Position numbers and translations under genes: made by a program. Positions 17,449 through 40,395 of a stretch of 56,146 nucleotides of DNA are shown here, piece by piece. The stretch's first letter is position 1; each line of letters begins with the position of its first letter. The notes under the pieces were generated by a model, which made no database searches, was not told the DNA's origin, and saw only the letters and a program-made list of their open reading frames with translations. This stretch comes from Firmicutes bacterium UBA5324 (GTDB lineage: Bacteria > Bacillota > Negativicutes > UBA11029). The stretch covers positions 1 to 56,146 of the forward strand of contig DHRA01000025.1 of NCBI GenBank assembly GCA_002411145.1. The letters run 5' to 3'.

Positions 17449-18342
17449 GTGATTCATAGATGGAGGAAATATCTGGGGTTTTTGTTGTGCTGCGTCATTG
17501 GTTCGGTATTGGGCGCCTTTTTGTGCGCGCAAGGCTTATGGCCGCTGCAGCCAAGGGTAGATCCCCAGGCTTTTGTATCCTCACCCGGGCCCGCTGTGCA
17601 GCAGGAAATGAGCCGGCCCGCGCCGGCCCGCCCTCTGGTCACCACGTATACAGTAAAAGAGGGGGATAATCTTTTTGATATTGCCAGGAAATACGGTATT
17701 GACACAGATACCCTCCGGGGCGGCAATCCCGAACTGGTTAACGAGGTCATTCACCCGGGCCAACAATTAAATATTTTGGCGGAAAAAGGGATTTTGCATA
17801 CCGTTAAGCCTGAACAAACTATCTGGAGTATTGCCAGACAGTATGGAGCCGATTGGCAGAAAATAGTGGCTGACAATCCGGACTTGGATGCCGACGCTTT
17901 GCATCCGGGGGAGAAAGTGTTCGTGCGGGGCGCAACGCTCCATAACGAAAGGGAAGTATCACGGGGCACCGTGGAGCTGATTTTTGGCTGGCCGACGCCC
18001 GGTACGATTTCTTCAGCCTTTGGCTACCGGTGGGGGGCAATGCATACCGGTATTGACATTGCCGCCGATACGGGGCAAACGATCCGGGCCGCGCGGAGCG
18101 GCCGTGTTACCCATGCGGGCTGGCTGGGCGGCTATGGTCTGACGGTCATCGTGGATCACGGGCGGGGCTGGGAGACATTATACGGTCACGCCAGCAGTCT
18201 TTATGTCGGCGCAGGTGAGGTCGTACAAAGCGGGCAGCCTTTGGCCGCGACGGGAAGTACAGGCAACTCCACCGGACCGCACCTCCATTTTGAGGTGCGG
18301 AAGCAGGGTGTGCCCGTGAATCCCCTGCCGTTTTTACCGTAG
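17449..18342 (+). CDS. LysM-domain M23 metallopeptidase
   Basis: GTG at 17449 is 6 nt after GAGGTG; the alternative ATG at 17428 has no RBS. One TM helix, two LysM repeats (YTVKEGDNLFDIARKYG; HTVKPEQTIWSIARQYG) and an intact M23 site (HTGIDI ... GPHLHFEV). Confidence 0.85.
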   Translation: MIHRWRKYLGFLLCCVIGSVLGAFLCAQGLWPLQPRVDPQAFVSSPGPAVQQEMSRPAPARPLVTTYTVKEGDNLFDIARKYGIDTDTLRGGNPELVNEVIHPGQQLNILAEKGILHTVKPEQTIWSIARQYGADWQKIVADNPDLDADALHPGEKVFVRGATLHNEREVSRGTVELIFGWPTPGTISSAFGYRWGAMHTGIDIAADTGQTIRAARSGRVTHAGWLGGYGLTVIVDHGRGWETLYGHASSLYVGAGEVVQSGQPLAATGSTGNSTGPHLHFEVRKQGVPVNPLPFLP

Positions 18343-19986: not shown

Positions 19987-20164
19987 GGAGTGGGGAGTAG
20001 GGAATGGGGAGTAGGGAATGACGGCACCCTGCGGGTGCCATACGTAGGGTGGGCAATTCCTTGCCCACGCGGGCGTAGGACGTGTCGTAGAATCACGATT
20101 TACCTGAACGCGGCAAGTCTTGCGCAAAGCGTCCCCCACTCCCCATTCCCCATTCCCCACTCCC
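19971..20164. repeat. family A hairpin repeat, long composite copy
   Basis: 50-nt purine arm (19971-20020: ggggaatagggggtagggagtggggagtagggaatggggagtagggaatg) and pyrimidine arm (20131-20164: gtcccccactccccattccccattccccactccc). The loop contains a 7-bp GC hairpin (20023-20039) and a family B copy. Confidence 0.65.
20041..20082. repeat. family B repeat nested in the family A loop
   Basis: tacgtagggtgggcaattccttgcccacgcgggcgtaggacg. Confidence 0.55.
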
Positions 20165-20206
20165 GGCCTTTTCCCCCACTTCCGCACAAAAAATTTGTGC
20201 CTGTTG

Positions 20207-23640: not shown

Positions 23641-24690
23641 TTGGATACGCGAATGCTGAAAATCAACCCGGAAAAACCGGATATGGCCCTTATTGGAGCA
23701 GCGGCCGGCGTCCTGCGCGCCGGGGGTATCGTGGCTTTCCCCACCGAGACGGTCTACGGGCTGGGCGGTAACGGACTGGATGAGGCAGCCGTCGCCAGGA
23801 TCTTCAAAGCGAAGGGACGACCGGCGGACAATCCGCTGATTCTGCATATTGCCACGCTGGAAGAATTGGGGCTGTTGGTGCGCGAGATTCCACCGGCGGC
23901 GCAGAAATTGAGCCGCGCTTTCTGGCCCGGGCCGCTGACCCTGGTGTTGCCGCGCAGTGAAAAGGTACCTGACATTGTTACCGGCGGGCTTGATACGGTA
24001 GCCGTGCGCATGCCCGATCATGTCATCGCCCAACTGCTGATTGCCAAAGCGGGAGTTCCCATTGCCGCACCCAGCGCCAACCTTTCCGGGCGGCCCAGTC
24101 CGACCGATGCGGCCGCTGTGTGGGCGGACATGCAAGGTAGGATAGACATGGTGGTGGACGGTGGACCAAGCGGCATCGGGGTGGAATCCACGGTTATCGA
24201 CCTGACCGCCGCAAAACCTGTATTGCTGCGGCCCGGGGGTGTAACCCTTGAGGAATTGCGCGCCGCCTTGGGGGAAGTGTCTTTGTGCGGGAGCCTGACG
24301 GCGGAAACCGGGCAGCCAAAGTCGCCGGGCATGAAATATACCCATTACGCACCGCGGGCGCCGGTTATTGTGGTTGAAGGAAAACAACCGGCGGTAGCCC
24401 GCGTTTTAGAAGGGGAGATTAAGACATACCGGGCAAAGGGAAATTGTGTTGGACTCCTGGCTACCCGGCAGACGGCCCGCCGGATCCGGGCCGATGTGGT
24501 AAGGGAAATGGGAGACGCGGCGGATCTGTTTTCTGTGGCCTCCGGGCTGTTTTCCGCCTTACGCTCCTTTGACGATACGCCGGTGGACGTTATCCTGGCG
24601 GAAGGTGTTTCAGAGGAAGGCATTGGCTTGGCGATCATGAACCGTCTCCGCAAGGCCGCAGGCTATCGTCTGATCCATGCTGACAAGTGA
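23641..24690 (+). CDS. tsaC: L-threonylcarbamoyladenylate synthase (Sua5/YwlC type, with C-terminal Sua5 domain)
   Basis: TTG at 23641 is 8 nt after AAAGGAGG; the alternative is ATG at 23653. The ORF-track start at 23593 lies inside the repeat arm. Motifs VAFPTETVYGLG, KGRPADNPLILH and SANLSGRPSPT. Confidence 0.9.
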   Translation: MDTRMLKINPEKPDMALIGAAAGVLRAGGIVAFPTETVYGLGGNGLDEAAVARIFKAKGRPADNPLILHIATLEELGLLVREIPPAAQKLSRAFWPGPLTLVLPRSEKVPDIVTGGLDTVAVRMPDHVIAQLLIAKAGVPIAAPSANLSGRPSPTDAAAVWADMQGRIDMVVDGGPSGIGVESTVIDLTAAKPVLLRPGGVTLEELRAALGEVSLCGSLTAETGQPKSPGMKYTHYAPRAPVIVVEGKQPAVARVLEGEIKTYRAKGNCVGLLATRQTARRIRADVVREMGDAADLFSVASGLFSALRSFDDTPVDVILAEGVSEEGIGLAIMNRLRKAAGYRLIHADK

Positions 24691-24789
24691 ACTTGTCTGG
24701 CTATGCCAGACTTCGGGGCTTCAGGTGGAGGCTCAGACGTTCAAACGAGACCTGATGATAATTCAGTGTATGTAATGGATTCTTATTTT

Positions 24790-24798
24790 TGCTATAAT
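24790..24798 (+). promoter_or_regulatory. extended -10 element (TGcTATAAT) upstream of the MNT/HEPN pair
   Basis: tgctataat at 24790-24798. No convincing -35 box. Confidence 0.3.
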
Positions 24799-24853
24799 AT
24801 ATGTATAGAATAAGTGTTGTAAGCATATTTTGCTCGAGCGGGAGGTGTATGGA

Positions 24854-25195
24854 GTGGCAATGGATATACTGAAAGCGAAGGACAATGAGCATGTTGCACT
24901 GGCTGAACTAAAGAAACGTGTACAAGAGAAAACGGCAGTCGAGAAAGTTGTTGTTTTTGGTTCGGTAGCTCGCGGCGAGGCAACAGAAGACTCCGATCTG
25001 GATGTATTGATTCTTACGGAAGAGCCAATTTCCTATACGGAGGAAACTTTTATATTTGATATAACGTTCTTTGTTAACCTGGAGTATGATACCAACATTA
25101 GCGTAGTGGTTATTCCAAAGGAAAAATGGGAATCTCCTGTCTGGTCGCTGCTACCACTTCATCAGGCAATTGCCAGAGAGGGAATTGCCGTATGA
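24854..25195 (+). CDS. nucleotidyltransferase-domain protein (MNT-type antitoxin)
   Basis: GTG at 24854 is 8 nt after GGGAGG; alternatives are ATG 24860 and TTG 24830. Minimal NTase motif VVVFGSVARGEATEDSDLDVLIL. Confidence 0.8.
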   Translation: MAMDILKAKDNEHVALAELKKRVQEKTAVEKVVVFGSVARGEATEDSDLDVLILTEEPISYTEETFIFDITFFVNLEYDTNISVVVIPKEKWESPVWSLLPLHQAIAREGIAV

Positions 25196-25596
25196 CCGCG
25201 GAAGGCAATGTGAAAGAGTTAGCGCGTTACTGGCTGAGCAAGTCGCTGGAGGCGGAAGAAGGTGCGATGTTGCTGTTTGAGCATCGGCAATGGCCGGCCT
25301 GCGTCAGTAGGCTGTATTATGCCTCATTTTATGCTATGAGTGCGCTTCTTGCGTTGCGGCAGTTAAGCTACGGAAAGCATTCCGCTGTTAGGGCCAGCTT
25401 GCATAGAGATTTTGTAAAAATGGATGTATTGCCTGTAGAGGCAGGCATGGTGTACAATCGGCTATTTGAATGGAGACAAAAGGCCGATTACGAAGCTTTT
25501 CTAGAAATGAATGAGCAAATGGCTGAAGATCTTTTAACACAAGCCAGGGATTTGCTTGAAGTGTTGCGCAAACACGCAGAGGCTGAGATTGGCTGA
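25192..25596 (+). CDS. HEPN-domain protein (toxin partner of MNT)
   Basis: 134 aa. The ATG at 25192 overlaps the upstream stop (ATGA). All-helical, with SRLYYASFYA and a WRQKADY HEPN-type motif. Confidence 0.8.
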   Translation: MTAEGNVKELARYWLSKSLEAEEGAMLLFEHRQWPACVSRLYYASFYAMSALLALRQLSYGKHSAVRASLHRDFVKMDVLPVEAGMVYNRLFEWRQKADYEAFLEMNEQMAEDLLTQARDLLEVLRKHAEAEIG

Positions 25597-25723
25597 TTTA
25601 GATTAAAGTTAAGACGTTTTATTGTGGCTAATATTTTCGTGATATTTCATGATGAAATATGTTGGTCATAATTTTGCAAAAAATTACAAACATGGAAGGG
25701 AAGTTACGATAGCTTACAGAATT

Positions 25724-25759
25724 TGAGACATAATTCACCTTATGTGGTGGATTATGTCT
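25724..25759 (+). terminator. 10-bp perfect hairpin, possible weak terminator after the TA pair
   Basis: gagacataat - 16 nt - attatgtctc. Only a short T tract follows. Confidence 0.3.
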
Positions 25760-25896
25760 CTTGACTTAAATGGGATAATATTGCTAGCGAGCCGTGAAAA
25801 GCTTAAGAAGAGTGCATTCATTTCAGCATCGATAGCCTTAGTTGGTTATAGCGGATATGGAGTAAAATAAGAATGGGAAACAATGATTGTCATCGG

Positions 25897-25927
25897 TTGC
25901 ATATCTATTTTTATTGAATTATATAAT
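25897..25927 (+). promoter_or_regulatory. candidate sigma-A promoter of the four-gene operon
   Basis: TTGCAT (25897-25902), 17-nt spacer, TATATA (25920-25925), or TATAAT (25922-25927) with a 19-nt spacer. AGGAGG at 25942-25947 and the TTG start at 25956 follow. Confidence 0.4.
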
Positions 25928-25955
25928 AATGGTGATTGCCCAGGAGGTGCTGTTT

Positions 25956-26951
25956 TTGAGAGAAACGATTGCCCACTATATAGCCAACTCCACCCGCAAG
26001 ACGCTCAATATTAAAGATTTTATTCCTTATTATCGCTATAGCGATTTGGTGGACGAAATCAAATCGCTGGTTACTAAAGGAGTACTAATGCCACGCGGAA
26101 GGCTCAACGGATTGAAACAGTCACTATACCATTCATACACTATTCACCGTGCGCCGAACGAGCAGTTACTTATTGAGATCCGCAATCTACCGCCTTACCT
26201 GCAGAATCAGTATTATGTCCAGCACCCCAAAGCTTATCAAGAGGACAAGCCTTATATAGATAGGCTATGCGACTTTTATGAAAATAATAAAGACCTACTT
26301 TCGTTTCCAGCGACGCTTAACGAACGGGCCTATCAGTTGGTTGGTAATGAAAAGTGGTTGTTGCCTAAATTTGGCGGGTTGGCAGTACTTACTCGGCTTG
26401 GTATCGCGATTGAAAGTCTGAATGTGTTTGCTACGCCTGAACCCTTTCATTATGTGCAGTATAACCAGTCGATTCGGACTGTGCTGATTTCCGAAAATAA
26501 AGATGCATTTTATGACATAAAAAAACTGGCGAAGGGGCTACCGTTTCGCTTGTGGAATGTCACGATTGACCTGTTAGTCTGGGGAGAGGGAAGTCACATC
26601 GAAAATAGCTTTGAATTTATGATTGAGCTAAATGCGATGCCAGACTTAGAAGTATTTTACTGGGGGGACCTCGACTATACCGGCATAGGAATTTTTACCC
26701 GGCTCATTGAGAAATTCCCCCAGAGCCGGATCGTGCCCCATTGTCAATTATATAAGGAAATGCTTGACCGGACGCCTAACCCGCCCGAACAGACTACAGC
26801 AGTTCGAGAAAAGGATAAGGAGATTCAGATATTTTTATCCTTTTTTGATGAACTTCAGCGACACAATATACAATCGCTCTTACTGCGAAATCGTCGCGTG
26901 CCGCAAGAGTCGGTCCCTTTCCATATCATGAGTAGGTTGGTGATGGCGTGA
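25956..26951 (+). CDS. Toprim-domain protein, JetD/MksG-like (putative nuclease subunit)
   Basis: 331 aa from the TTG at 25956, 8 nt after AGGAGG; the ORF extends up to 25887. C-terminal half: VLISENKDAF (Toprim Glu, codon 26493-26495), then FYWGDLDYTGIGIF (DxD, 26667-26675) and a terminal RVPQES. This ENK ... GD-D--G pattern is as in Topo VI-A/Spo11-like Toprim and DUF2220. Confidence 0.7.
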   Translation: MRETIAHYIANSTRKTLNIKDFIPYYRYSDLVDEIKSLVTKGVLMPRGRLNGLKQSLYHSYTIHRAPNEQLLIEIRNLPPYLQNQYYVQHPKAYQEDKPYIDRLCDFYENNKDLLSFPATLNERAYQLVGNEKWLLPKFGGLAVLTRLGIAIESLNVFATPEPFHYVQYNQSIRTVLISENKDAFYDIKKLAKGLPFRLWNVTIDLLVWGEGSHIENSFEFMIELNAMPDLEVFYWGDLDYTGIGIFTRLIEKFPQSRIVPHCQLYKEMLDRTPNPPEQTTAVREKDKEIQIFLSFFDELQRHNIQSLLLRNRRVPQESVPFHIMSRLVMA

Positions 26952-28501
26952 ACGATTATTTCAGTGATTTTGAAACACGAATACGAAACTTAGCGCCCCT
27001 ACAATACCTAGCGACCCGGACGCAAGACTTTCAACGTTCCTATACATATCCTCTTTACCCGATGGCACTTGGCATGCTTATTCTGATCTATGAAGGTATG
27101 CTCATTAATGAACATCACTCGGCTCAATCGCTCGCGAACGAAATGCGCAAGCGCTGGACAGGCATTTTGGTTGCCAATAAGCAGGGCGATATCGATACAG
27201 TAGTGCAGGTATTATTGTTTTCAATCCTGCAAAACGATGGCATACCCTACGTCTATAGTGATATTATACCGACAACAGGAGCTACAGTCGAAGTCCCTGT
27301 TAAATTAATAGAAACCGCTGACTTTGATATTTCACAGTCGTACGCGACTTTTCGCTTAACCAGTCAGGGACTCGAACTACTTTATGCATCAAAAGAAATA
27401 CCCGGTGAACTCCAGCTCACAATCGAACAGTTATACCTACGGCAGCAATATGAGGGGGGCCACTTTAATCAAGCCCTGCAGCACATCCAAAACATTTATC
27501 AAATCATCCGTTTACTTTCGCAGGATATCGACCAAACCAGTCGCGCTTTAATGGCCGATGCCTTTAGTGTACAGTTTGAAGATTTTGAACAGGTTATCCA
27601 CCGCAAGACCGAGATCAACCAGCGCGAAAAAAAGGAGTTTATGCTACTTCATACCAAAGTCCGCCAAGATCGGAAAAGTGTGGAGGACCAGGAGATTCGC
27701 AACCAAAAAGATGACGATGCACTCCTAATGCTGCGACGCATCGAATCCAATCTACAGGGCTTAGTGAAAGAACATGTCCGACTGCTCAATAAGACGCAAG
27801 ACCTCAACTCTCGGTTTTTAGAATCGCGGCGGCAACGCATCGCTCTGGCTTTACGGCGGCAGATTCACTACCGGAATGATATTCTGACGCCATGCATCGA
27901 AGAAAATCCACCCATTGAAATGGCCTATCACGGCATCTACTTTTTATTTCGGCAACGCCCCTCACACTTTAGCCCGCTCTGGTGTTTTCATAATCAACTG
28001 CCCAAAATCATACGAAGCGATGAAATCGAAACAGCAGATGATTATAGCCCTGACGAAGAAGCCGCTGAACGGCTAGCCGAACAGCGCAGATACGAAGCCA
28101 GCTTTTACCGGCACGCCCTTAGCCGATTTATCCGCAGGATGACGCCAGGCGAACCTCTATCCATCAGTCAATTTTTTACGCTCAGCGATAGTGAGCGGCG
28201 CAAATATGAAAACAGTTTCCATTTTTTCTTTATTTTCATTCAGCTTTACCGGATCGGGGTACTTGATCTAAGCAAGTTGACGAAAGAGGATTTGATTTAT
28301 AGTGAAAATGAGCCGATTGATATTACCCAAATTATTGCCCGCCACCGGGTTGATCACCCGGAATCTTATCCAGGACGCTATATTGTGGTGAGCGGCAACG
28401 GCAAGACTTATGTGACAAGCGGCGGTGCAAGCATAACTGACTTTGCTCTCCATATCGTTGATTCGATTGAGGAGGTGGCGCTTGATGTATACACAGGATG
28501 A
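26948..28501 (+). CDS. unknown 517-aa protein, candidate kleisin-like (JetA/MukF-position) subunit
   Basis: The GTG start overlaps the upstream stop (GTGA). Its size, predicted helical character and its position before a small protein and an SMC-like ATPase parallel jetA/mukF. I recognise no diagnostic motif. Confidence 0.45.
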   Translation: MNDYFSDFETRIRNLAPLQYLATRTQDFQRSYTYPLYPMALGMLILIYEGMLINEHHSAQSLANEMRKRWTGILVANKQGDIDTVVQVLLFSILQNDGIPYVYSDIIPTTGATVEVPVKLIETADFDISQSYATFRLTSQGLELLYASKEIPGELQLTIEQLYLRQQYEGGHFNQALQHIQNIYQIIRLLSQDIDQTSRALMADAFSVQFEDFEQVIHRKTEINQREKKEFMLLHTKVRQDRKSVEDQEIRNQKDDDALLMLRRIESNLQGLVKEHVRLLNKTQDLNSRFLESRRQRIALALRRQIHYRNDILTPCIEENPPIEMAYHGIYFLFRQRPSHFSPLWCFHNQLPKIIRSDEIETADDYSPDEEAAERLAEQRRYEASFYRHALSRFIRRMTPGEPLSISQFFTLSDSERRKYENSFHFFFIFIQLYRIGVLDLSKLTKEDLIYSENEPIDITQIIARHRVDHPESYPGRYIVVSGNGKTYVTSGGASITDFALHIVDSIEEVALDVYTG

Positions 28502-29243
28502 TATTAAGGCGGCGGTGCAAGCTTTTTATCGCCTATTAGATATAGGCGAACTAACTGCCAAAGATCCGCTATTGCCCGCTTTGCGTTGCCCGGAAATTCA
28601 AGAAGTATTGAGTATCCTGGCGGACGAGGCCGCCATGACGGTACTATATAATCTGCCTACGGCGGCATATCTGTTGCCCCGGGAACCATTCAGCATATTC
28701 AGCTATCGCAATGAAGAGCTTGTGAAGATTTTTGGCGGCACGCCAAACAACGATAAACTCTATACTTGCTACGTTATCATCATGATCTTCCTGGCTGAGT
28801 TTTACTCGTCCAACAACTATACTGCCCAGAGCCGTGACTTTATTTCCTTCCGCGACTTTTTCAGTTTAGTCAATGATACCATGGATGCCATGCTGGCCCG
28901 GCCGGAAATTGACGAAGTTTCGCAGTCGGTTAACATCCGCTTTAGCGACGGTGCTAAGTACTGGACAAGCCTGAATTCCTTTGATCCGCGAGCCAACCGA
29001 CAGGTCGGCGGACAGCGGAGCGACCAGGTCTCGTATATGGAAAAGGTCTTAGGCATTCTGCAGAATCATAAATTTATTACGGTCGACAACCTGCAACGAA
29101 AAGAACTCTCCGATAACTCGATTATTTACGTGACACCGAAACTAACCGCCTTTATGATCGGTTACTACGGTAATGAGGAGCGTAAAAAGCAGCTTCTCAA
29201 GTATATTCGTGAAGGAGTTATGCCTGATGCCATGCCTCAATAG
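28485..29243 (+). CDS. unknown 252-aa protein, candidate KITE-like (JetB/MukE-position) subunit
   Basis: ATG at 28485 is 9 nt after GAGGAGG and overlaps the upstream gene by 17 nt. Size and position parallel jetB/mukE. The C-terminal KVLGILQNHKFITVDN...IIYVTPKL looks like a winged-helix module. Confidence 0.45.
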   Translation: MYTQDDIKAAVQAFYRLLDIGELTAKDPLLPALRCPEIQEVLSILADEAAMTVLYNLPTAAYLLPREPFSIFSYRNEELVKIFGGTPNNDKLYTCYVIIMIFLAEFYSSNNYTAQSRDFISFRDFFSLVNDTMDAMLARPEIDEVSQSVNIRFSDGAKYWTSLNSFDPRANRQVGGQRSDQVSYMEKVLGILQNHKFITVDNLQRKELSDNSIIYVTPKLTAFMIGYYGNEERKKQLLKYIREGVMPDAMPQ

Positions 29244-32200
29244 GGTGCGCTACGTCAACTTCCGGTATGGACAAAACGGGTCTATGGTGATGCGGGACAA
29301 AAGCTTTGATCTGGCAGGGGAAAGTACCCTGTTTAACTTAGTGAACTCCGGCGGAAAAACATCCCTTATCCATATGATGGCGCAAGCAGTTATCCCGAAC
29401 GCCAGCTTTGATAAACGGAAACTGGATCTTTATTTTCAGGGCGAACCACACACTACCCACGTTCTTATCGAATGGGTGCTGGATGGCGACAGCGGCTATT
29501 TATTAACCGGTTTTTGTGCCAAGGGCGGACATGGGCAAGTGCAGCGATGGCTTGCCTATCAGCACCATTACTATTATGACAATCCGTTTTCGCTGGATCG
29601 CATACCGGTTATCGTTGACGATCAAGTAACTCTCTATGATAAATTCAGTAGTATTTTACGCCAGGCCAAGCAAAGCGGGACATCCTTATCTGTCTACTTC
29701 GATGATGAGAAAACCAAGTATATGAACGACCTTATCAACTACGGCATCATCGCGAAAGAATGGGAAATGCATCTGCGCATTAACATGAAAGAGACGGACG
29801 GACTCAGAGCTTATTATGGCAAGTGGAAAACCTCAAAGGAGCTAATGGAACACGAAATTATTCCCAAGATTGACGATAAAGTACAAGCTAAGCAGCCGCT
29901 AAGCGACTATCATGCCTGTCTGCAAAAGCATTACAGTCAGTTGTGCCAGGAGCCCCGTATTCGGGCCGAAATCGCCGATCTGCGTGCGTTGGAACCGATG
30001 ATTGCAAAATGGAGCAGCGCAGCTGAGCAACTGGAAATTGCAGAACAGGCACAAGCGGCGGCGGATACGGAACTGTCACGATTCCGGCTTGGAGTGACAG
30101 AACAGGCCGATGATGTGGAGGCTGGACTAACAGAAGCGCAGGAAAAAGAAACATCCCTAATCGCACGGCAGCGGCAAACTGAATTTGAGATAAAGTCGCT
30201 GGAGCTTTATAATGTTAGAGCGACAATTGCCGAAATCAATCATTTAATTAGTGTTAAAGAGACGGGGATACAGGCGGATGAGGCCGAACGAGCAGGTATT
30301 CAGACACGTCTGACAGAAGCTCTGGCCGTTGATTTGTTCCGTATCCTTGAAGACCGCGAATACGATGTCGAGAAGCTTAGAACTGAACAACATAATGCTG
30401 CTGCCGGTCAAGAGGAATTGAAGGAAAAACTCATCACTACCGGCAGTATTCTTGCTGCTTATGCCCGAGCCGCTATTGAACGGCTGGATCAGGAGATTGC
30501 CACTTACAAGCAAAAGATGCTCGCTCTTGAACAAGGCAGGCAGGATACCGAACAGGCGGTGGCTGGCGATCAGCAGCAACTACAGCAGGTATCAGCCCGT
30601 GTCGAAGTATTGAAGTATCAAATTCAGCAGTTTACGGATGGAGTCTATAAAGAGGCCGAAGACGCACTCTCGCCGCTTGAGTTTATTGACCTTGAAACTG
30701 CTCCAGACGCATTCGTTGTCAAAGCGGATAGGAATCTCAAACAGCTTGAGAAAATTAGCAAAGAGGTTAATGCCTGCTTAAGCGAGGCGCAAAGCCGCAA
30801 AGAATCCCTTTTAACACAGGTAACGGAGCTGGAAAAAACGCTGCAGCAATGGCAATTTGCCCGCGAGCGGCAGGTGGATTTCTGCAAACGCCACGAAAAA
30901 GCGGAAACTGATATCATGGCTCGTCTGATAGGGTTCGTCACAGATGCGCAGGATGTTTATAATGCGCGAGCGAAAACCAAAATGGCGGAACGCCGGCAGC
31001 ATTATGAAGCTAGGTATAAAGACTGTGAGGAGCGTTTGCGCGAGTTATGGCCCGAGCAAAAGAAACTGAGCGGTGATTTCTATGTGGCGACTGGCCATAT
31101 TACGACCCTAGTCAGCGAATTACACCGGATTGGTATTCAAGAAGCCATTGCCGGCAGCGCGTATCTACTCAACCAACCGAACGCCGACAGTTTATTGGCT
31201 TTGCACCCGGAACTGCCATATGCCGTTGTTGTCAACCGACAGTCGATCAGCAGGTTGCAGCAGCGCTCTAACGCGTTGGCGATCTCGGCGCCTACGATAC
31301 TATTAGCCCGGGAAAGTCTCGGCGATAACGTCTCTGCCGAGGCGGAAAGCTTTGTTATTACACTAGCCAAGGATATCCATGCCGTGCGCCCGGATGATTT
31401 TCGCTACTACCTTTCCCGCGAAGAATATACTACTCTCAAAACCAAGGTTCAGAATGAAGTGGATCAGATGGAGCAAGAGAAAACAGTTTGCCGCAACCAG
31501 CAAAGTCATATTTCCGGTTTGCTTGACGCTGCTAACCAGTATCTTGAAAACTTCCCGCTGGATGCCTATCTGGCAGTACAGGCTGAAGTCCGCCGGATTG
31601 AGGGTGAAATTAGTGATCTCACCGAGCAGAGCGGTATACTGAAAGGAGATATTAAACAATTAACCACGACCATTGACGAGTTGATAACCCGTGCTGCCGC
31701 TGCCGTAACCAATGTCAACGCGACGGCGGCGCTTAAGGCACTGGTTGAACGGTTTACCAGGGATCACCGTGCAAATGCTGAAACTAAACAGCAGCTCGCG
31801 ACTTGCGAAAAACAACTGGCTGAACTGCAAGGAAAATTTGATGAAGGCAAACGATGTATAGACCGTATTCATAATGAGCAGCGGCAAACTGAACGGCTCA
31901 TTTATAATACCGAACGGCTAAAAGAAGAGCCGGACGACATTTTAGAAGCCGTAATGGGATACTCCCAACCCATTAGCTGCGATACAGCAGCGGTGGACTC
32001 GAACCGCCTTAGTGCTGAGTTTCAAGGCCTCAAAACGTTGTACGAAGGAACGGTTCAGGAGGCTGATTTACTGGCTCGTAAGATTATGGAGGCGGAGCGG
32101 GCTCGCAATAAAGCCGAGCGGGAATTTACCGAGCTCGGCGTGAACCGTGAACGCTGCAAACAGCTTTATCCACAAACTGACTATGTGAAAGATCAATGGA

Positions 32201-33582
32201 GAAAGCAAATCAGCGAATTAACCGAATTAATTCGTTGTCACGAAATGGAAAAAATGCGTCTGACCGGAAAGCTCGATTCACCGCAAGAGGCGGAAACTAA
32301 ACTGCTGAAGGACATACACCGCCACTTTGGATACGAACCGCAAACCGAGTTTGATGATGGTGTGACGCTCGATTCTCTTGCCGAATTAAGCAAGCGAATT
32401 AAAGCTGCAATTGCTGAAGTGGGCAAGGTTATCGAAGAACATAAAAAGCGGCTTGATATATTGACCAACATAAAAAACAGCTTGAAAGAAGAGCAGCTGT
32501 CGCCCGTTAACGATCCCTTACCCTTTGCTTTCAGCGACGCTTTGATGCTTTCGGCTAAACTGGGGAAAGCCCGGAGCCAAGCGGCCGTGAACGTCGCCAC
32601 AGCGAGAAGTGTCGTAACGCAGGCGGTCCATGCTCTTAGCCGCTACGAACGCATTAGTGATTCGAAACCGGTTGAAGATTTGGTTCGCAAATTCGGTAGC
32701 GGTGATACCGCGTTATTTAGCGGCGAAGTCGCCCGCAAGAAAGCACAAGAGATCAGCATGATCATTGAAGATCAAGTACGGGCGCTGGAACTACAAAAGG
32801 CCAGGATCGACGAAGACCGTAATGAGATTATTGACAGTCTTCTCAAATGGACTGAATTCGCCAATGACGAGATCCACGAACTTGTGTCCTGCTCGCGCAT
32901 TAAACTACAGGATAGCCGACGCGCCCTGGTCGAGATCCGAAAGCTTGAAAAGCCGAGTGAGGAGCAAATGCGTGAACGCCTGGCACTATTCATTACCGAG
33001 ATTATCGGCAAACTTAACGATAACTACCAGGCCGACGCTGATGAAGCCAAGCTCACCGTGGCTATTGCGGGTTATCTTTCAGCATATAACATTCTAGATA
33101 AGACTGTTAATGTCAGCGCGGCAGAAGTTATGGTATGGCTCGCTGAAATCAACCCTGGTGCAAGCCGGATGATTCCATGGGAAGAGGGGCAGTCGGGTGG
33201 ACAAGGCCTGTTAACCGCCTTTGTAATGTACATAACGTTGATGACATATACCAGTAAGGAACATGGTAAGATTAATCAGACAAAGACGTTGTTTGCAGAT
33301 AATCCCTTTGGGATAGCGAATGCCGAACATCTTTTGACAGTATTGTTTGGTATTTTGCATGAAAACCGTATTCAACTGATGGCTTATACCGGTATCGAAG
33401 ACAAGAATATCTATCGCCGGTTTCCCCGCGTTTTCTTACTGCGACCGGTTGATTCGGCCAATAAGCGATACACCGTTCTTCATACCGAACAAATCAAATC
33501 CGGCAGCGGAACTATTGCCCTACAGGAGGCGGTCGCACGGCGGGTTGATCTCATGAACTATTCGCTGTTTGATGAAGAATAG
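29227..33582 (+). CDS. SMC/MukB-like ATPase with very long coiled coils (JetC/MksB-like)
   Basis: 1451 aa from the ATG at 29227, 9 nt after GAAGGAG, with a 17-nt overlap. N-terminal P-loop LVNSGGKTS (29344-29364). Two Glu/Gln/Arg/Lys/Leu-rich helical arms of roughly 500 aa each. Central non-coiled hinge-like segment (about 31100-31450: GIQEAIAGSAYLLNQPNADSLLALHPELPYAVVVN). C-terminal ABC signature QSGGQ (33190-33204) and Walker B-like TLFADNPFG (33286-33312). Confidence 0.75.
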   Translation: MPCLNRVRYVNFRYGQNGSMVMRDKSFDLAGESTLFNLVNSGGKTSLIHMMAQAVIPNASFDKRKLDLYFQGEPHTTHVLIEWVLDGDSGYLLTGFCAKGGHGQVQRWLAYQHHYYYDNPFSLDRIPVIVDDQVTLYDKFSSILRQAKQSGTSLSVYFDDEKTKYMNDLINYGIIAKEWEMHLRINMKETDGLRAYYGKWKTSKELMEHEIIPKIDDKVQAKQPLSDYHACLQKHYSQLCQEPRIRAEIADLRALEPMIAKWSSAAEQLEIAEQAQAAADTELSRFRLGVTEQADDVEAGLTEAQEKETSLIARQRQTEFEIKSLELYNVRATIAEINHLISVKETGIQADEAERAGIQTRLTEALAVDLFRILEDREYDVEKLRTEQHNAAAGQEELKEKLITTGSILAAYARAAIERLDQEIATYKQKMLALEQGRQDTEQAVAGDQQQLQQVSARVEVLKYQIQQFTDGVYKEAEDALSPLEFIDLETAPDAFVVKADRNLKQLEKISKEVNACLSEAQSRKESLLTQVTELEKTLQQWQFARERQVDFCKRHEKAETDIMARLIGFVTDAQDVYNARAKTKMAERRQHYEARYKDCEERLRELWPEQKKLSGDFYVATGHITTLVSELHRIGIQEAIAGSAYLLNQPNADSLLALHPELPYAVVVNRQSISRLQQRSNALAISAPTILLARESLGDNVSAEAESFVITLAKDIHAVRPDDFRYYLSREEYTTLKTKVQNEVDQMEQEKTVCRNQQSHISGLLDAANQYLENFPLDAYLAVQAEVRRIEGEISDLTEQSGILKGDIKQLTTTIDELITRAAAAVTNVNATAALKALVERFTRDHRANAETKQQLATCEKQLAELQGKFDEGKRCIDRIHNEQRQTERLIYNTERLKEEPDDILEAVMGYSQPISCDTAAVDSNRLSAEFQGLKTLYEGTVQEADLLARKIMEAERARNKAEREFTELGVNRERCKQLYPQTDYVKDQWRKQISELTELIRCHEMEKMRLTGKLDSPQEAETKLLKDIHRHFGYEPQTEFDDGVTLDSLAELSKRIKAAIAEVGKVIEEHKKRLDILTNIKNSLKEEQLSPVNDPLPFAFSDALMLSAKLGKARSQAAVNVATARSVVTQAVHALSRYERISDSKPVEDLVRKFGSGDTALFSGEVARKKAQEISMIIEDQVRALELQKARIDEDRNEIIDSLLKWTEFANDEIHELVSCSRIKLQDSRRALVEIRKLEKPSEEQMRERLALFITEIIGKLNDNYQADADEAKLTVAIAGYLSAYNILDKTVNVSAAEVMVWLAEINPGASRMIPWEEGQSGGQGLLTAFVMYITLMTYTSKEHGKINQTKTLFADNPFGIANAEHLLTVLFGILHENRIQLMAYTGIEDKNIYRRFPRVFLLRPVDSANKRYTVLHTEQIKSGSGTIALQEAVARRVDLMNYSLFDEE

Positions 33583-33720
33583 CAACATGGATTGCTGGTT
33601 GTCCATGTTGCGTAAAGTAAACTATAATTAGGGTGTTCTCTTCTGTTCTGTTATCAGCTGTTATTATTCCATTACCACAGTGTTCAAATCCACCCTTTTT
33701 ACAAAAAAAGGAATAATTAA

Positions 33721-33766
33721 AACCGCGAATTGTTTGGATGTATGACAGACAATTCGCGGTTTTTTG
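33721..33766 (+). terminator. rho-independent terminator of the island operon
   Basis: aaccgcgaattgt - loop - acaattcgcggtt (13-bp perfect stem) followed by TTTTT. Confidence 0.75.
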
Positions 33767-33880
33767 CTGTATATTTGGTATATTGGTATAGGCATAGATG
33801 AAAGAAGCGTTTTATTATTAATTGGCTAAGAGCGGATTTTCCCGCGGGGTATATCTTTTTTGCTAAAGCATATAATTTAA

Positions 33881-33908
33881 CCACCGGAAAAAGCCGGTGG
33901 ATTTTTTT
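33881..33908 (+). terminator. second rho-independent terminator upstream of mntP
   Basis: ccaccgg-aaaaag-ccggtgg followed by ATTTTTTT. Confidence 0.65.
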
Positions 33909-34000
33909 GGGCTATCGGCCATAATCCATACCGTACATGAATGCGGAGGCAAACTCCGCCGCTGCGGCTCGGCGCAAGTCTAATGACTAAGGAGGTTGCA

Positions 34001-34594
34001 ATGAGCATCGTAAGGTTGATCTTGCTAAGCACCGCTTTGGGGACAGATTTGTTTTCCGTTACTCTGGGTTTGGGGATGAACCGGTTTCGCCTGCGGCAGA
34101 TTCTGAAAGCCAGTGCCTGTTTTGCCCTGGCACACGTATTTTTGTTACTTACCGGCTATAACTTAGGCCACTACCTTGGTTACTTTGTGGAACATATCGG
34201 TACCCATCATAACCCCTTTACTTCGGATTCCATGCAAAACTGGGCCGGTATGCTCGGGGCTTTCGTACTGGTATTGCTGGGGATAAACATGATTTGGGGT
34301 AATATTAACGAAGATGATGAAAAAGTCTGCGTGCGGGCTGTCAACCCGCTGCGGGGATTAAGCCTTATGTTGATGGCGGTAAGTGTCAGTCTTGATGCCC
34401 TGGCCGTTGGTTTCGGGCTGGGCATGCTTGATGTGGATCTAATCCTGTTATGTGTTATTCTGGGCATAGTTATTTTTCTCATCGCCCTGACCGGCTTAAT
34501 GCTGGGTTGTAAATTAGGGGTAATGATCGGCCAACGGGCGGAACTGGTGGGTGGTCTGGTGTTGATTGTTGTGGGCCTGAATGTGTTGCTTTGA
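34001..34594 (+). CDS. mntP: manganese efflux pump MntP (YwlD)
   Basis: 197 aa from the ATG at 34001 after AAGGAGG. Two repeated halves with GTDLFSV and SLDALAVGFGLG motifs, and AELVGGLVLIVVG as in E. coli MntP. Confidence 0.85.
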   Translation: MSIVRLILLSTALGTDLFSVTLGLGMNRFRLRQILKASACFALAHVFLLLTGYNLGHYLGYFVEHIGTHHNPFTSDSMQNWAGMLGAFVLVLLGINMIWGNINEDDEKVCVRAVNPLRGLSLMLMAVSVSLDALAVGFGLGMLDVDLILLCVILGIVIFLIALTGLMLGCKLGVMIGQRAELVGGLVLIVVGLNVLL

Positions 34595-34753
34595 CTTGCT
34601 GCCGGAGGATGGAACCTCTTTGCGAGGAAAACCTTGCTCCGGGCCGTTGCCGGTCATGATTTTTCTAGGGACAAGCCTTGGCGAAAAAAAGGATTTCCAA
34701 TTTTGTGGCGAGAAATGTTATACACTGGATATACTAATAATGAGGTGAGAAAT

Positions 34754-35245
34754 GTGCTGCGTGTGCTGTTTGTATGTACCGGAAATACCTGCCGCAGTCC
34801 CATGGCGGAGGCGTTGTTCCGGCAAATGATTCAGGCAGAAATGAGAGAACAGGATATGTTGACTATCTCGGCCGGGTTATCAGTCTGGGGAGACGCTCCG
34901 GCATCCGGTCAAGCGATAGCAGTTATGCGTAAACAGGGAGTTGATTTATCGTCGCACCGCAGCCGGTCCCTGACGCCTGAACTGGTAGAGGCGGCAGATA
35001 TAATACTGACAATGACAGGTGACCATAAACGGACTTTGTTGGCTTCGGTGCCGGAAGCGAAGGGAAAAGTGTTCACGCTTGCCGAGTTTTCCGGCGAAGG
35101 GTTTGCCGATGTGGCCGACCCCTATGGTGCTACGGAAGCCGTTTACCAGCACTGTGCCGACGAGATACGCCGGTGTTTGACAAAATCATGGGAAAAAATC
35201 CTGAAATTTCACAAAGACAATGCAGGGGAAAATACGTCTGCGTAG
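34754..35245 (+). CDS. ywlE: low-molecular-weight protein phosphatase (YwlE-type arginine/tyrosine phosphatase)
   Basis: GTG at 34754 is 6 nt after GAGGTG. CX5R(S/T) loop VLFVCTGNTCRSPMAE and the DPYG Asp loop. Confidence 0.88.
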   Translation: MLRVLFVCTGNTCRSPMAEALFRQMIQAEMREQDMLTISAGLSVWGDAPASGQAIAVMRKQGVDLSSHRSRSLTPELVEAADIILTMTGDHKRTLLASVPEAKGKVFTLAEFSGEGFADVADPYGATEAVYQHCADEIRRCLTKSWEKILKFHKDNAGENTSA

Positions 35246-35288
35246 AATTGTGTAAGAATGAATTTTTGCCCCTGGGAGGTAGATATCC

Positions 35289-35729
35289 GTGCGCGTGGCA
35301 ATCGGATCTGATCATGGCGGATTTCTTTTGAAAGAAGAGATTAAATCGCTATTGACGGAAATGCAGATTGAATTCAAAGATTTTGGCGCCTATTCCGCAG
35401 ACTCCGTTGATTATCCGGATATTGCGCGGGCGTTGTCCCTGGTCGTTGCCAGTGGTGAATATGACCGGGGTATTCTTCTGTGCGGCACCGGTATTGGTAT
35501 GTCCATCGCAGCCAATAAAATAAAGAATATCCGGGCTGCTTTAGTTCATGATGTATTTTCCGCCGTGGCCACCCGTGAACATAATGACAGCAATATATTA
35601 TGTATGGGTGAACGGGTAATTGGTTTTGGCCTCGCCCGTTTAATTACAAAGACCTGGTTAACGACTGAGTTTTCGGGAGGACGTCATGCCCGCCGCATTG
35701 CCAAACTCGAGCAGTCGGAGGGTTGTTGA
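35289..35729 (+). CDS. rpiB: ribose-5-phosphate isomerase B
   Basis: 146 aa with a GTG start after GGGAGG. IAIGSDHGG, LLCGTGIGMSIAANK and GERV motifs. Confidence 0.93.
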   Translation: MRVAIGSDHGGFLLKEEIKSLLTEMQIEFKDFGAYSADSVDYPDIARALSLVVASGEYDRGILLCGTGIGMSIAANKIKNIRAALVHDVFSAVATREHNDSNILCMGERVIGFGLARLITKTWLTTEFSGGRHARRIAKLEQSEGC

Positions 35730-36278
35730 ATGAAAAATTGGCAGTCCATCTCCGATGAAACGGCATGTGCTTTAGCGGAATTGCAGGCGGCAGCCGGGCT
35801 GTGCCGCGGGCAGATATTGGTCGTTGGCTGCAGCACCAGTGAAGTTGGCGGACAGCACATCGGTACCGCCGGTTCAGCGGAGGCAGCGCGGGCTATCATG
35901 CGTTCGCTCCTGCAGTTCGCGGAGGATACAGGTGTCAGACTGGCCATTCAGTGCTGTGAACATTTGAATCGCGCCTTGGTGGTGGAGGAAGAAACGGCGG
36001 CCCTCTATGGGCTGGAGATTGTAAGTGTCATACCTGTTAGTGGTGCCGGCGGGGCCTTGGCGGCCCAGGCCATGCAAGACATGCAAAAGGCGGTCGTTGT
36101 TGAGAGGATTCGCGCCCATGCCGGGCTCGATATCGGAGAGACATTGATCGGCATGCATTTAAGAACTGTGGCCGTACCGTTGCGCCTGTCGCGACGCAGT
36201 ATCGGTCAGGCCAGAATTTCGGCGGCAAAAACCCGCCCCAAATTAATCGGCGGCCCTCGTGCCGTATACGAAAAATAA
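35730..36278 (+). CDS. YwlG/UPF0340 (TIGR01440-type) protein
   Basis: 182 aa. GQILVVGCSTSEVGGQHIGTAGS is the family hallmark. The synteny rpiB-ywlG-glyA also fits. Confidence 0.78.
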   Translation: MKNWQSISDETACALAELQAAAGLCRGQILVVGCSTSEVGGQHIGTAGSAEAARAIMRSLLQFAEDTGVRLAIQCCEHLNRALVVEEETAALYGLEIVSVIPVSGAGGALAAQAMQDMQKAVVVERIRAHAGLDIGETLIGMHLRTVAVPLRLSRRSIGQARISAAKTRPKLIGGPRAVYEK

Positions 36279-36286
36279 TAAATGAC

Positions 36287-36441
36287 GGGAATAGGGAATA
36301 GGGAAACAGGGAATAGCCAAAAGGAATAGGGAATGGGGAATAGGGAGTGGGGTATACCGGGAAAGGTATGAAATCCCATACGCTACACCTTATTTCCCGT
36401 TCTTTGCGTACTACTCCCGTGCACCTGTTCGCTGCTCCCTA
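36287..36441. repeat. family A repeat, multi-unit copy
   Basis: gggaatagggaatagggaaacagggaatagccaaaaggaatagggaatggggaatagggagtgggg, followed by a degenerate pyrimidine-rich arm (ccttatttcccgttc...ctactcccgt...gctccctat). Confidence 0.55.
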
Positions 36442-36461
36442 TGATCAAGGAGAGATGCAGT

Positions 36462-38810
<2,349 letters not shown>

Positions 38811-38814
<4 letters not shown>

Positions 38815-39125
38815 AATATCGTGAAATACGTTTGCCAAAATTGAATGGGTTGACGCCAAACCTTGAAGGCACACTGCTGAAACTGACGGAAGAGCTGGGT
38901 GAATTGTGCCGGGAAGCCGGTAAACACCGCGGAATGAGCGGTGAAGCCACCGCGCTGCCCCGGGATGAAGTGCTTGCCAATATTGCCGCGGAATTATTGG
39001 ATGTGGCCCAGACTGCCGTTTCCATGATGTATGTGCTGGAAGAATCCTATGACGTAAATATCGAGGCCGCCTTGCAAAAGCATGTGGAAAAACTCATCCG
39101 CAAAGGCTATTTGAAATGCGAGTAA
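38811..39125 (+). CDS. small MazG-like nucleotide pyrophosphohydrolase-domain protein
   Basis: 104 aa with a GTGA overlap. The LTEELGEL ... AAELLDVAQ pattern (EExxE ... ExxD) is typical of the all-alpha NTP-PPase fold. Confidence 0.55.
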
Positions 39126-39141
39126 GGGGGAAAATCCCGGT

Positions 39142-39177
39142 CAGCTGTTTCCTTCGCGGGGAACGGCTGTTTTTTTG
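39142..39177 (+). terminator. rho-independent terminator
   Basis: cagctgtttcc - loop - ggggaacggctg followed by TTTTTTT. Confidence 0.7.
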
Positions 39178-39366
39178 CGTTCCGGGGAATAGGATTTTTA
39201 TGATGCTGATAAAAATATAGAAGGAAAACCGGAGTTAATGAAGCAATACCGACGGATTACCCGGATAAAGGCAATTCTTACGGTAGGGAGGTTGTCTAAG
39301 TTGCGTTGACAAGGCAAACCCAATGGAGTAAAATTATGTTTGGCATAGAAATGAGGTGTTAATCGC

Positions 39367-40395
39367 ATGCAAATATACATCGTCGCATTCATTATAGCTG
39401 TTGCAGTAGCGTATTTTGCTACACCCCATGTAAAAGAATTGGCGATAAAAGCGGGGGCGATGGATACGCCCGATGAGCGTAAGGTACATCGGGAACCGGT
39501 ACCCAGGATGGGTGGGTTAGCCATTTATTTCGGTGTGGTGGCCGCTGTTTTTATCAGCATGAAAATTAACCATCAGATTCTGGGTATTTTTTTAGGCGGC
39601 TCGATTATGCTCGCCGTAGGAATTATTGACGATATTAAGCAGTTATCGGCCAAAGCCAAGCTGGCGGGCCAAATTTTGGCGGCCATGGCGCTTATTGTTT
39701 TTGATGTGCGGATTGAATGGCTGACGAATCCCTTCGGACCAATGATTTATTTGGATTACCTGAGTATTCCGGTGACAATCCTCTGGATTGTGGCGGTGAC
39801 AAATACGGTAAATCTGATTGACGGTTTAGACGGTCTCGCAGCCGGCGTGTCGTCCATCGCGTCCATTACTATTTTATTTGTTGCTTTACAGCAAAATCTT
39901 TGGATGGTGGCTTTACTTACCGCCGCCATCGCGGGTAGTGCGCTGGGCTTCTTATTTCATAACTTCAATCCGGCAAAAATTTTCATGGGTGACACGGGCA
40001 GTCTGTTTCTCGGCTATATGCTGGCCGCGGTGTCTATCATGGGTGCGGTGAAAGGGGCGGCAACAATTGCGTTGTTCGTACCGATTGTCGCCCTGGGGCT
40101 GCCGATCATGGACACGGCCTTTGCAATTATCCGCCGTTACCATCATGGGGTGCCGATTTTCCGCCCGGACAAAGGGCATTTACACCACCGGCTGCTGGCC
40201 ATGGGATTATCCCAGAAGCAGGTGGTGCTTAGCATGTACGTTGTCAGCGGACTGCTGGGCCTTAGTGCAATTATTCTTTCGGAAGTAAGCCAGTTATATG
40301 CCTTTTTAATATTCATCGCTATTGCAGCTGTCTCTGTTGTCGCCGCGAAGAAAATCGGTGTACTGGACATTCATGAAAAAAACGTAGACGCGTAA
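39367..40395 (+). CDS. MraY/WecA-family (GT4) undecaprenyl-phosphate GlcNAc-1-phosphate transferase (TagO/WecA-like)
   Basis: 342 aa, polytopic. DERKVH, IDDIKQL, NTVNLIDGLDGLA, FMGDTGSLFLG and HLHHRL motifs. Confidence 0.9.
   Translation: MQIYIVAFIIAVAVAYFATPHVKELAIKAGAMDTPDERKVHREPVPRMGGLAIYFGVVAAVFISMKINHQILGIFLGGSIMLAVGIIDDIKQLSAKAKLAGQILAAMALIVFDVRIEWLTNPFGPMIYLDYLSIPVTILWIVAVTNTVNLIDGLDGLAAGVSSIASITILFVALQQNLWMVALLTAAIAGSALGFLFHNFNPAKIFMGDTGSLFLGYMLAAVSIMGAVKGAATIALFVPIVALGLPIMDTAFAIIRRYHHGVPIFRPDKGHLHHRLLAMGLSQKQVVLSMYVVSGLLGLSAIILSEVSQLYAFLIFIAIAAVSVVAAKKIGVLDIHEKNVDA

Follow-up and report, generated by a model that had tools for sequence, protein, structure and literature searches.

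The question raised by this locus is how an islet of 9146 bp, with defence-type genes and no evident gene for its own movement, came to lie between two conserved core genes, tsaC (ywlC) and mntP (ywlD), and how it is passed on between strains. The DNA analysed, hereafter the window, comprises 56,146 nucleotides of Firmicutes bacterium UBA5324 (GTDB lineage Bacteria; Bacillota; Negativicutes; UBA11029; NCBI GenBank assembly GCA_002411145.1, contig DHRA01000025.1, positions 1 to 56,146 of the forward strand), with the source contig coming from the ENA assembly of a fermentation metagenome (ERZ922858, PRJNA260163). The islet, also called the island below, carries a pair of genes for a minimal nucleotidyltransferase (MNT) and a HEPN-domain protein, followed by a type III Wadjet operon, jetDABC. 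It is best explained, with a probability of roughly 75%, as foreign, strain-variable DNA behind tsaC, in an uncultured Bacillota species with a probable relationship to Negativicutes, that was gained horizontally and that strains exchange through homologous recombination in the core genes on either side.

The flanking gene order, prfA-prmC-tsaC on the left and mntP-ywlE-rpiB-ywlG-glyA-upp-...-atp on the right, had been recognised in a first-pass annotation made from the sequence alone and was confirmed by Pfam searches on the called genes; along the source contig the order is L31, DUF1385, prfA, prmC, tsaC, island, mntP, a low-molecular-weight phosphatase gene (ywlE), rpiB, a DUF436 gene (ywlG), glyA, upp and dCMP deaminase, continuing to the atp operon. 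An exact look-up of RpiB yielded five contigs of the same species (L082, L083, L086, L087 and L090) in which 171 bp separate tsaC from mntP. Their flanks are 98.5–100% identical to the window, and >99.9% identical in the two longest, L082 and L083. When these empty-site contigs were compared with the window using blastn, homology ended at 24680 and restarted at 33827, the interval 24681–33826 being filled in all five by the 7 nt cgatcag. The placement of the insertion between tsaC and mntP was therefore kept, and the limits first assigned to it, 24691–34000, were replaced by 24681–33826; positions 33831–34000, the 170 bp before mntP, are host intergenic DNA with the original tsaC terminator still within.

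In three sister species (L102, L104/L105 and L106; TsaC 68–74% identical, synteny complete across 20 kb) mntP comes next after tsaC, at a distance of 98–170 bp. Since these syntenic sister species are empty, the empty state is ancestral and the island is a gain, so that a true insertion with an empty site is documented both within the species and in its sisters. Exact look-ups of JetD, TsaC and the HEPN protein placed the island in nine samples, always at the tsaC–mntP junction and with identical borders, and five samples were empty; no third allele was found among these 14 samples of the species, and both alleles, island and empty, occur within PRJNA260163.

Whether other species use the same junction was surveyed with two sets of loci, employed for this purpose only: a collection scan of genome contigs with TsaC, which returned only distant relatives (≤56% identical), and a metagenome-contig scan with a TsaC alignment of the clade, in which the relatives among the matches listed were ≤54% identical. 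A recognisable downstream anchor was present at 126 of the 160 TsaC loci of other species (mostly Bacillota), with a median gap of 82 bp, and the 39 loci with a detectable mntP had a largest tsaC–mntP gap of 1262 bp. Alignment of related intervals hence delivered the empty site and no alternative cargo. The earlier idea of a recurrent defence-island hotspot is not supported in the genomes sampled, with two alleles in 14 samples, three empty sister species and 39 junctions of at most 1262 bp, in a sample that holds few close relatives. Many Bacillaceae among the loci L001–L080 (e.g. L013, L014, L017 and L026) have an extra 1.4–1.9 kb in the ywlE–rpiB interval, not in the tsaC–mntP interval.

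The island DNA is compositionally foreign. Its guanine-plus-cytosine (GC) content is 0.462, compared with 0.520 for the rest of the window and 0.494 for the lowest host window of 9.1 kb. GC at third codon positions (GC3) is 0.39–0.55 in the island genes against a host mean of 0.575 (standard deviation 0.048; Mann–Whitney p = 3e-4), the dinucleotide signature lies at a distance of 118 from the host against 26.6 ± 7.5 for host windows of the same size (maximum 40.2), and GC skew in the four jet genes is −0.06 to 0.06 against a host-gene mean of +0.14 (p = 0.002). The discontinuity is thus seen in GC, GC3, GC skew and dinucleotides, and not in relative synonymous codon usage, the distance in which failed to set island genes apart from host genes. 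The visibly lower GC noted in the first-pass annotation was real, but its hand counts per 60 nt (20–31 inside, 33–44 in the flanks) exaggerated the contrast, since the ranges overlap (15–38, mean 27.7, in the island; 18–41, mean 32.1, in the flanks). The step is sharp at the left border (tsaC 60.8%) and blurred at the right (mntP 48.8%).

An ancestral island, with the empty sites as deletions, is highly improbable on this evidence. Loss by recombination certainly occurs in the population, and degraded copies of the cassette were found (jetA is frameshifted in L191 and jetC split in L187, see below), both of which an ancestral island would accommodate; the three empty syntenic sister species, the lack of a large insert at the 39 tsaC–mntP junctions among the 160 loci, the foreign composition and an empty junction that does not read as a chimera of the occupied ones speak against it.

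Exchange between strains was read from a table of single-nucleotide polymorphisms (SNPs) covering all contigs that span the junctions. At site 24135, island carriers have A (window, L093) or G (L092, L191, L194, L196), and empty contigs likewise have A (L082, L083) or G (L086, L087). At sites 24450/24453, TA is found with the island in the window, L092 and L093 and CG in L191, L194 and L196, while without the island CG is found in L082, L083, L086 and L087 and TA in L090. All four gametes thus occur 230–550 bp from an identical junction, and crossovers or conversion must therefore have taken place within the 3′ portion of tsaC, the gene in which homologous recombination passes the island from strain to strain. 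On the other side, L092/L094 are 99.9% identical to the window over 24136–34530, which comprises the island with about 550 bp on its left and about 700 bp on its right, and divergence jumps to 8–10% from 34531, inside mntP. The four gametes in tsaC and the sharp divergence breakpoint in mntP together back the mechanism that had been listed at first as one of several possibilities, homologous replacement through the flanking core genes. For the same lineage pair the diversity of the island is 0.09% (8 SNPs/9146 bp) against 0.6–10% in neighbouring core genes, which fits a recent spread of the island across backgrounds.

The species as a whole is a recombination mosaic, in which strains otherwise >99.9% identical differ by 5–10% over tracts of several kb. 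Such divergent tracts lie at window positions 37200–40000 relative to L082 (upp, dCMP deaminase, MazG, glycosyltransferase) and at 34531–37117 relative to L092, L094 and L089 (ywlE, rpiB, glyA), and the intergenic stretches 20020–20174 and 36271–36443 do not align at all between lineages.

The low diversity also bears on the proposal that the islet is what is left of a larger mobile element after decay of its integrase and ends, which had been put forward initially as an old insertion with decayed ends. The absence of mobility genes would agree with it, as would a composite structure with AT-rich spacers (25597–25955 and 33583–33826) that could be scars. The proposal was not borne out, and it is very unlikely: lineages that differ by 0.6–10% in their flanks have 8 SNPs over the 9146 bp, which speaks for a recent arrival or sweep, non-coding DNA amounts to only about 0.8 kb in a tightly packed island and holds no open reading frame (ORF) remnants with Pfam matches, and the sister species are cleanly empty.

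At the left junction, the last codons of tsaC (24681–24690) read GCT GAC AAG TGA in carriers (..HADK, stop) and GCC GAT CAG TAA in empty strains (..HADQ, stop). Both ends resemble genuine tsaC termini by comparison with the sister species, whose TsaC C-termini are too variable for the ancestral terminal allele (HADK or HADQ) to be read from them. A simple insertion or deletion does not convert either junction allele into the other. The true break may lie right after the tsaC stop codon, the final 10 nt of the gene then carrying four linked substitutions. In two carriers, L191 and L194, the tsaC stop TGA is changed to GGA at window position 24688, whereby TsaC extends 41 codons into the left end of the island and reaches 386 or 390 aa; L191 also carries the empty-type base C at 24681.

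Signals of mobility were sought throughout the interval. No integrase or recombinase was found, as the six island genes all belong to other families, the alternative ORFs of the interval are without Pfam match and the spacers hold no notable ORF. The window contains no tRNA gene; in the interval no tmRNA (transfer-messenger RNA) gene was found and no Rfam family either, with no match at E ≤1, the manganese riboswitch (yybP-ykoY) before mntP included. In this spacer, 33831–34000, the tsaC terminator is accompanied only by a stretch rich in GC. The repeat search gave no flanking direct or inverted repeats at the junctions, and none above shuffled sequence. What had been read by eye, namely that integrase, tRNA and convincing direct repeats are missing, accordingly stood up to the Pfam and PADLOC searches, the tRNA search and the repeat searches against shuffles. 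The segment 24681–25955 had no DNA match in PLSDB or INPHARED, and IMG/VR contained neither relatives of JetD or the HEPN protein nor exact matches to the island ends.

Several candidates for element ends were rejected. The hairpins at the left end, considered as a transposon end or an end of the repetitive extragenic palindromic (REP) type, occur nowhere else in the window or in any of the loci, and they are no more stable than shuffled sequence (z-score −0.97). As attachment (att) sites, the motif ATAATTCA..TATGT..TGGATT upstream of both operons, as well as TTTTTTGCT, shared by the right end and the host spacer, showed similarity no better than shuffles, and the hexamer TGGCTA near both ends has a chance expectation of roughly 5%.

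The origin of the island was approached through the relatives of its genes. The 90%-identity cluster of JetD contains variants that are 96% identical in protein and sit at a different location, on contigs L187 and L188, where the order is secG, H+-pyrophosphatase, RNase R, smpB, tmRNA, a few small genes, jetDABC, PhD/ParE and a helix-turn-helix (HTH) S24 protein. The host of these contigs is Sporomusa, its RNase R, pyrophosphatase and SmpB falling into 90%-identity clusters with named Sporomusa species. Window positions 25660–33682 share 95.0% DNA identity with the Sporomusa copy over 8031 bp, with sharp ends on both sides, one at 25660 in the spacer after the HEPN gene and the other at 33682, 100 nt after jetC. 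The window host is of a different lineage from Sporomusa, because its TsaC is only 55–59% identical to that of named Negativicutes, Sporomusaceae included, and for its ATP synthase beta subunit no named relative turned up at 90% identity. The GC content of the jet cassette, 46.7%, is below both sampled host backgrounds.

The HEPN protein in turn is ≥90% identical to proteins of several Sporomusaceae, falling into a 90%-identity cluster with those of Pelosinus fermentans, Sporomusa rhizae, Methylomusa anaerophila and Anaerospora hongkongensis. The S. rhizae homologue (XER08266.1) has an accession ten numbers from that of SmpB (XER08276.1), and this numbering hints that it lies in the same tmRNA-adjacent neighbourhood. 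Taken together, these sequence relationships point to a recent horizontal transfer between lineages, and a Sporomusaceae-like donor is inferred because both modules have near-identical relatives there. The island itself is a composite of a left part with MNT/HEPN (24681–25659), the 8.0-kb jet cassette and an AT-rich right end of 144 bp with a terminator. More distant jet operons (JetD 72–83% identical) were found in other contexts and match over the coding region only. Relatives of the cassette also have other defence or addiction modules as neighbours: in L097 (1552–3416) AAA_21 and RloB lie upstream and Fic downstream. A lone degraded jetD on a 224-kb contig (L101, 10001–10854; fragments of 222 + 65 aa, 59% identical) without jetABC appears to be the relic of a lost Wadjet operon.

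A window drawn from a metagenome assembly, with a cassette 95% identical to Sporomusa DNA, could in principle be a chimeric contig of Sporomusa-like DNA and another genome. Such an artefact is scarcely conceivable, as both junctions were recovered independently in 9 samples (ENA, JGI, Logan and NCBI metagenome-assembled genome (MAG) assemblies, made with different assemblers) and the junction-bearing contigs carry island-linked SNP variation.

The tmRNA gene is a classic integration site. Like tmRNA- or tRNA-adjacent islands, the Sporomusa jet copy lies right behind tmRNA, among toxin-antitoxin and HTH genes (PhD/ParE and a repressor-like HTH-S24 gene at 17793–18400 of L187/L188, downstream of the cassette); unlike them, the window copy adjoins no tRNA or tmRNA gene and neither copy has an integrase in the sampled DNA, none being present within 10 kb of the Sporomusa copy. 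This neighbourhood would suit a site-specific integration in trans, in which an integrase-less mobilisable islet uses an att site at the tsaC stop and supplies a replacement for the tsaC 3′ end. Such an event would also explain a junction that is exact and identical in 9 samples at the 3′ end of a conserved gene, and an island that provides the final codons of the gene in frame, with their stop (..HADK). It is nevertheless unlikely, for the two junctions lack direct repeats, terminal inverted repeats and any similarity exceeding that of shuffles, the 39 other tsaC–mntP junctions and the 3 sister species contain no different cargo at this position, the missing integrase beside the Sporomusa copy tells against it, and the cassette ends (25660, 33682) differ from the island ends, so that the moved unit would differ between the two sites. 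Similarly doubtful is the notion that the jetDABC cassette (25660–33682) is by itself a discrete, recombinase-free mobile unit with defined ends that hops between sites and families, for example with a recombinase acting in trans. If it were so, the sharp, identical boundaries in two contexts and the placement at a stop codon would be signatures of an undescribed mechanism and not of chance illegitimate recombination.

Horizontal gain followed by homologous exchange, the preferred explanation, has difficulties of its own, and several observations weigh against it. The sequences are without exception metagenome or MAG contigs, with no isolate among them; the right side shows only three of the four gametes; the divergence step in mntP could stem from the import of a divergent downstream tract rather than of the island, with either direction conceivable; and the empty allele (catgc-cgatcag-taaaagcgg) is neither a simple precursor nor a simple deletion product of the occupied junctions, the original insertion having left no readable signature.

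The course of events proposed under this explanation starts from an ancestral, empty tsaC–mntP site, at which DNA with MNT/HEPN and jetDABC arrived horizontally from the presumed Sporomusaceae-like donor. The islet encodes nothing for its own movement. Its gain, loss and transfer between backgrounds within the species proceed via crossovers in tsaC and mntP, those in tsaC being demonstrated by the four gametes. For the first entry two routes are the most likely. In one, the islet came in from an unsampled relative in which it already stood behind tsaC, and the rest of the donor flank was lost through subsequent recombination; the main alternative to this is illegitimate or homology-facilitated recombination. 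Import with a diverged tsaC end is suggested because the four substitutions are confined to the last 10 nt of tsaC.

Variable regions without an integrase have been described to diversify through double homologous recombination in the core genes next to them (Oliveira et al. 2017, PMC5635113). Like the spots in that work, the locus presents an islet between core genes conserved in order, without mobility proteins, with breakpoints in the flanking genes and with a presence uncoupled from the flank haplotype; unlike a hotspot of that kind, it has one cargo and an empty state only, and the same junction holds no insert above 1262 bp in the other species sampled.

The features of the locus are collected in Table 1.

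Table 1. Coordinates of the island, its genes and non-coding elements, and the adjoining core genes (window numbering).
Feature	Position	Strand	Evidence and remarks
tsaC (ywlC, threonylcarbamoyl-AMP synthase), left flanking core gene	23653..24690	+	Pfam Sua5_yciO_yrdC and Sua5_C; junction alignments
Inserted island, 9146 bp	24681..33826	+	blastn of L082, L083, L086, L087, L090; composition
7-bp stem-loop (gtctggc-tat-gccagac), just inside the left end	24695..24711	+	overlaps a second stem-loop, gacaagt-g-aacttgtc, 24682-24697
MNT-type minimal nucleotidyltransferase (putative antitoxin), motif GSVARGE...DSDLDV	24860..25195	+	Pfam NTP_transf_2 2e-14, Polbeta; PADLOC PDC-S09, PDC-M05A
HEPN-domain protein, UPF0332 type (putative RNase toxin)	25192..25596	+	Pfam HEPN 9e-14; PADLOC PDC-M05B
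Type III Wadjet cassette, 8.0 kb: promoter region, jetDABC, downstream hairpin	25660..33682	+	blastn of L187 9723-17718, 95.0% DNA identity
Palindrome, 15-bp arms (gagacataattcacc-ttatgt-ggtggattatgtctc), upstream of the jetD promoter-like sequence	25725..25760	.	read from the sequence; kept in the Sporomusa copy
Promoter-like TTGCAT ... TATATAAT in front of jetD	25897..25927	+	by eye; absent from the promoter scan list
jetD (type III; Toprim nuclease; motifs ISENKD, GDLDYTG)	25956..26951	+	PADLOC JetD3 3.9e-71; Pfam JetD_C 7e-12
jetA (type III kleisin-like subunit), 517 aa	26948..28501	+	PADLOC JetA3 8.2e-55, residues 1-505
jetB (type III KITE-like subunit, DUF6063), 252 aa	28485..29243	+	PADLOC JetB3 1.4e-42; Pfam DUF6063 7e-36
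jetC (type III SMC-like ATPase), 1451 aa	29227..33582	+	PADLOC JetC3 4.3e-83 over full length; Walker A NSGGKTS, signature QSGGQG
Hairpin, 9-bp stem, directly after the jetC stop, within the shared cassette	33583..33610	+	sequence
Island terminator: 18-bp arms (94% complementary), then T run	33719..33766	+	repeat search; in the 144-bp right-end segment not shared by the Sporomusa copy
Host tsaC terminator (ccaccgg-aaaaag-ccggtgg + T7), displaced 9.1 kb from tsaC	33881..33907	+	also in empty-site strains and sister species L106
mntP (ywlD), right flanking core gene; holds the L092/L094 breakpoint (between 34323 and 34531)	34001..34594	+	Pfam Mntp 2e-32; SNP map

All six island genes lie on the + strand and were assigned by Pfam and PADLOC to defence-type families, in line with the first description of the island as carrying only such genes, co-oriented with those of the host. 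The MNT/HEPN and jet modules each have their own promoter-like sequence, and the island closes with its own terminator; the palindrome upstream of jetD may be an operator.

The start of the HEPN gene overlaps the stop of the MNT gene by 4 nt, and both proteins match PADLOC candidate defence families (PDC-S09, PDC-M05). The nucleotidyltransferase motif GSx(n)DxD is present in the MNT protein (GSVARGEATEDSDLDV). In the HEPN protein, inspected by eye without a family alignment, RASLH (Rx3H) and RQKADY were seen, and the canonical Rx4-6H motif was not evident. HEPN/MNT toxin-antitoxin modules (type VII, HepT/MntA) are abundant (PMC7641770, PMC11586414). The window pair agrees with them in consisting of two genes with MNT upstream, in the 4-nt overlap and in the G-S-x-x-R-G ... 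D-x-D motif of MNT; it differs in that its HEPN protein belongs to Pfam PF05168 (UPF0332) and not to the biochemically studied DUF86/HepT family. On these sequence features the pair is classed as a putative nucleotidyltransferase antitoxin with a HEPN toxin of the RNase type.

The genes jetD, jetA, jetB and jetC are contiguous, overlapping and on the same strand, and the PADLOC matches cover nearly the full length of their products. For all four proteins the top profiles are those of type '3', JetD1 profiles scoring 1e-10 or worse. The likely start of jetD is the TTG at 25956, preceded by AGGAGG, which gives a product of 331 aa that matches the length of its homologues. The JetD motifs ISENKD and YWGDLDYTG are kept in homologues that are 72–83% identical. 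The operon thus resembles type III Wadjet in its four co-oriented, overlapping genes, its type-III-specific profiles, the JetD_C/Toprim acidic motifs of JetD and the Walker A and signature motifs of JetC. A PDB sequence search with JetD and JetC gave no match. The type III (JetABCD) class of Wadjet was reportedly defined by Doron et al. in 2018, with an operon of Bacillus thuringiensis as its representative.

In type I Wadjet, an SMC-like, loop-extruding complex recognises small DNA circles and cleaves them (PMC12287153); types II and III are told apart by operon organisation and domain composition, type III being barely characterised (bioRxiv 10.1101/2025.03.10.642339). By analogy, jetDABC presumably encodes an SMC-like JetABC complex together with a Toprim nuclease, JetD, that cuts small circular DNA. 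Two points count against taking this function for granted. It is extrapolated from types I and II, and the Walker-B-like sequence of JetC, LFADNPFG (window 33190–33215, residues ~1357–1364), has Asn for the usual catalytic Glu, reading D-N, unlike the D-E of the usual ABC/SMC Walker B. As this Asn is conserved in three homologues that are 72–96% identical, the type III subfamily in question may be characterised by it.

Loss-of-function variants also segregate naturally, among them the tsaC stop loss of L191 and L194 noted above. Within the cassette, a 4-bp deletion at window positions 28150–28153 frameshifts jetA in the carrier L191, and on the Sporomusa contig L187 jetC is split into 321 + 1082 aa (L187 13272–17626), the gene being intact in L188.

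The islet is ordinary in kind, and its pattern, integrase-less and exchanged by homologous recombination, is well known; existing models of integrase-less islands are supported and not changed, with neither a new integration hotspot nor a new mobility mechanism revealed. Its value is that of a clean natural example, with the empty site available, of how a defence system spreads without mobility genes, and for a hardly studied subtype it offers a defined type III Wadjet cassette along with natural loss-of-function variants. For the organism, the locus would mean that an anti-plasmid Wadjet system and a toxin-antitoxin pair passed between families first, and then among strains through recombination of housekeeping genes.

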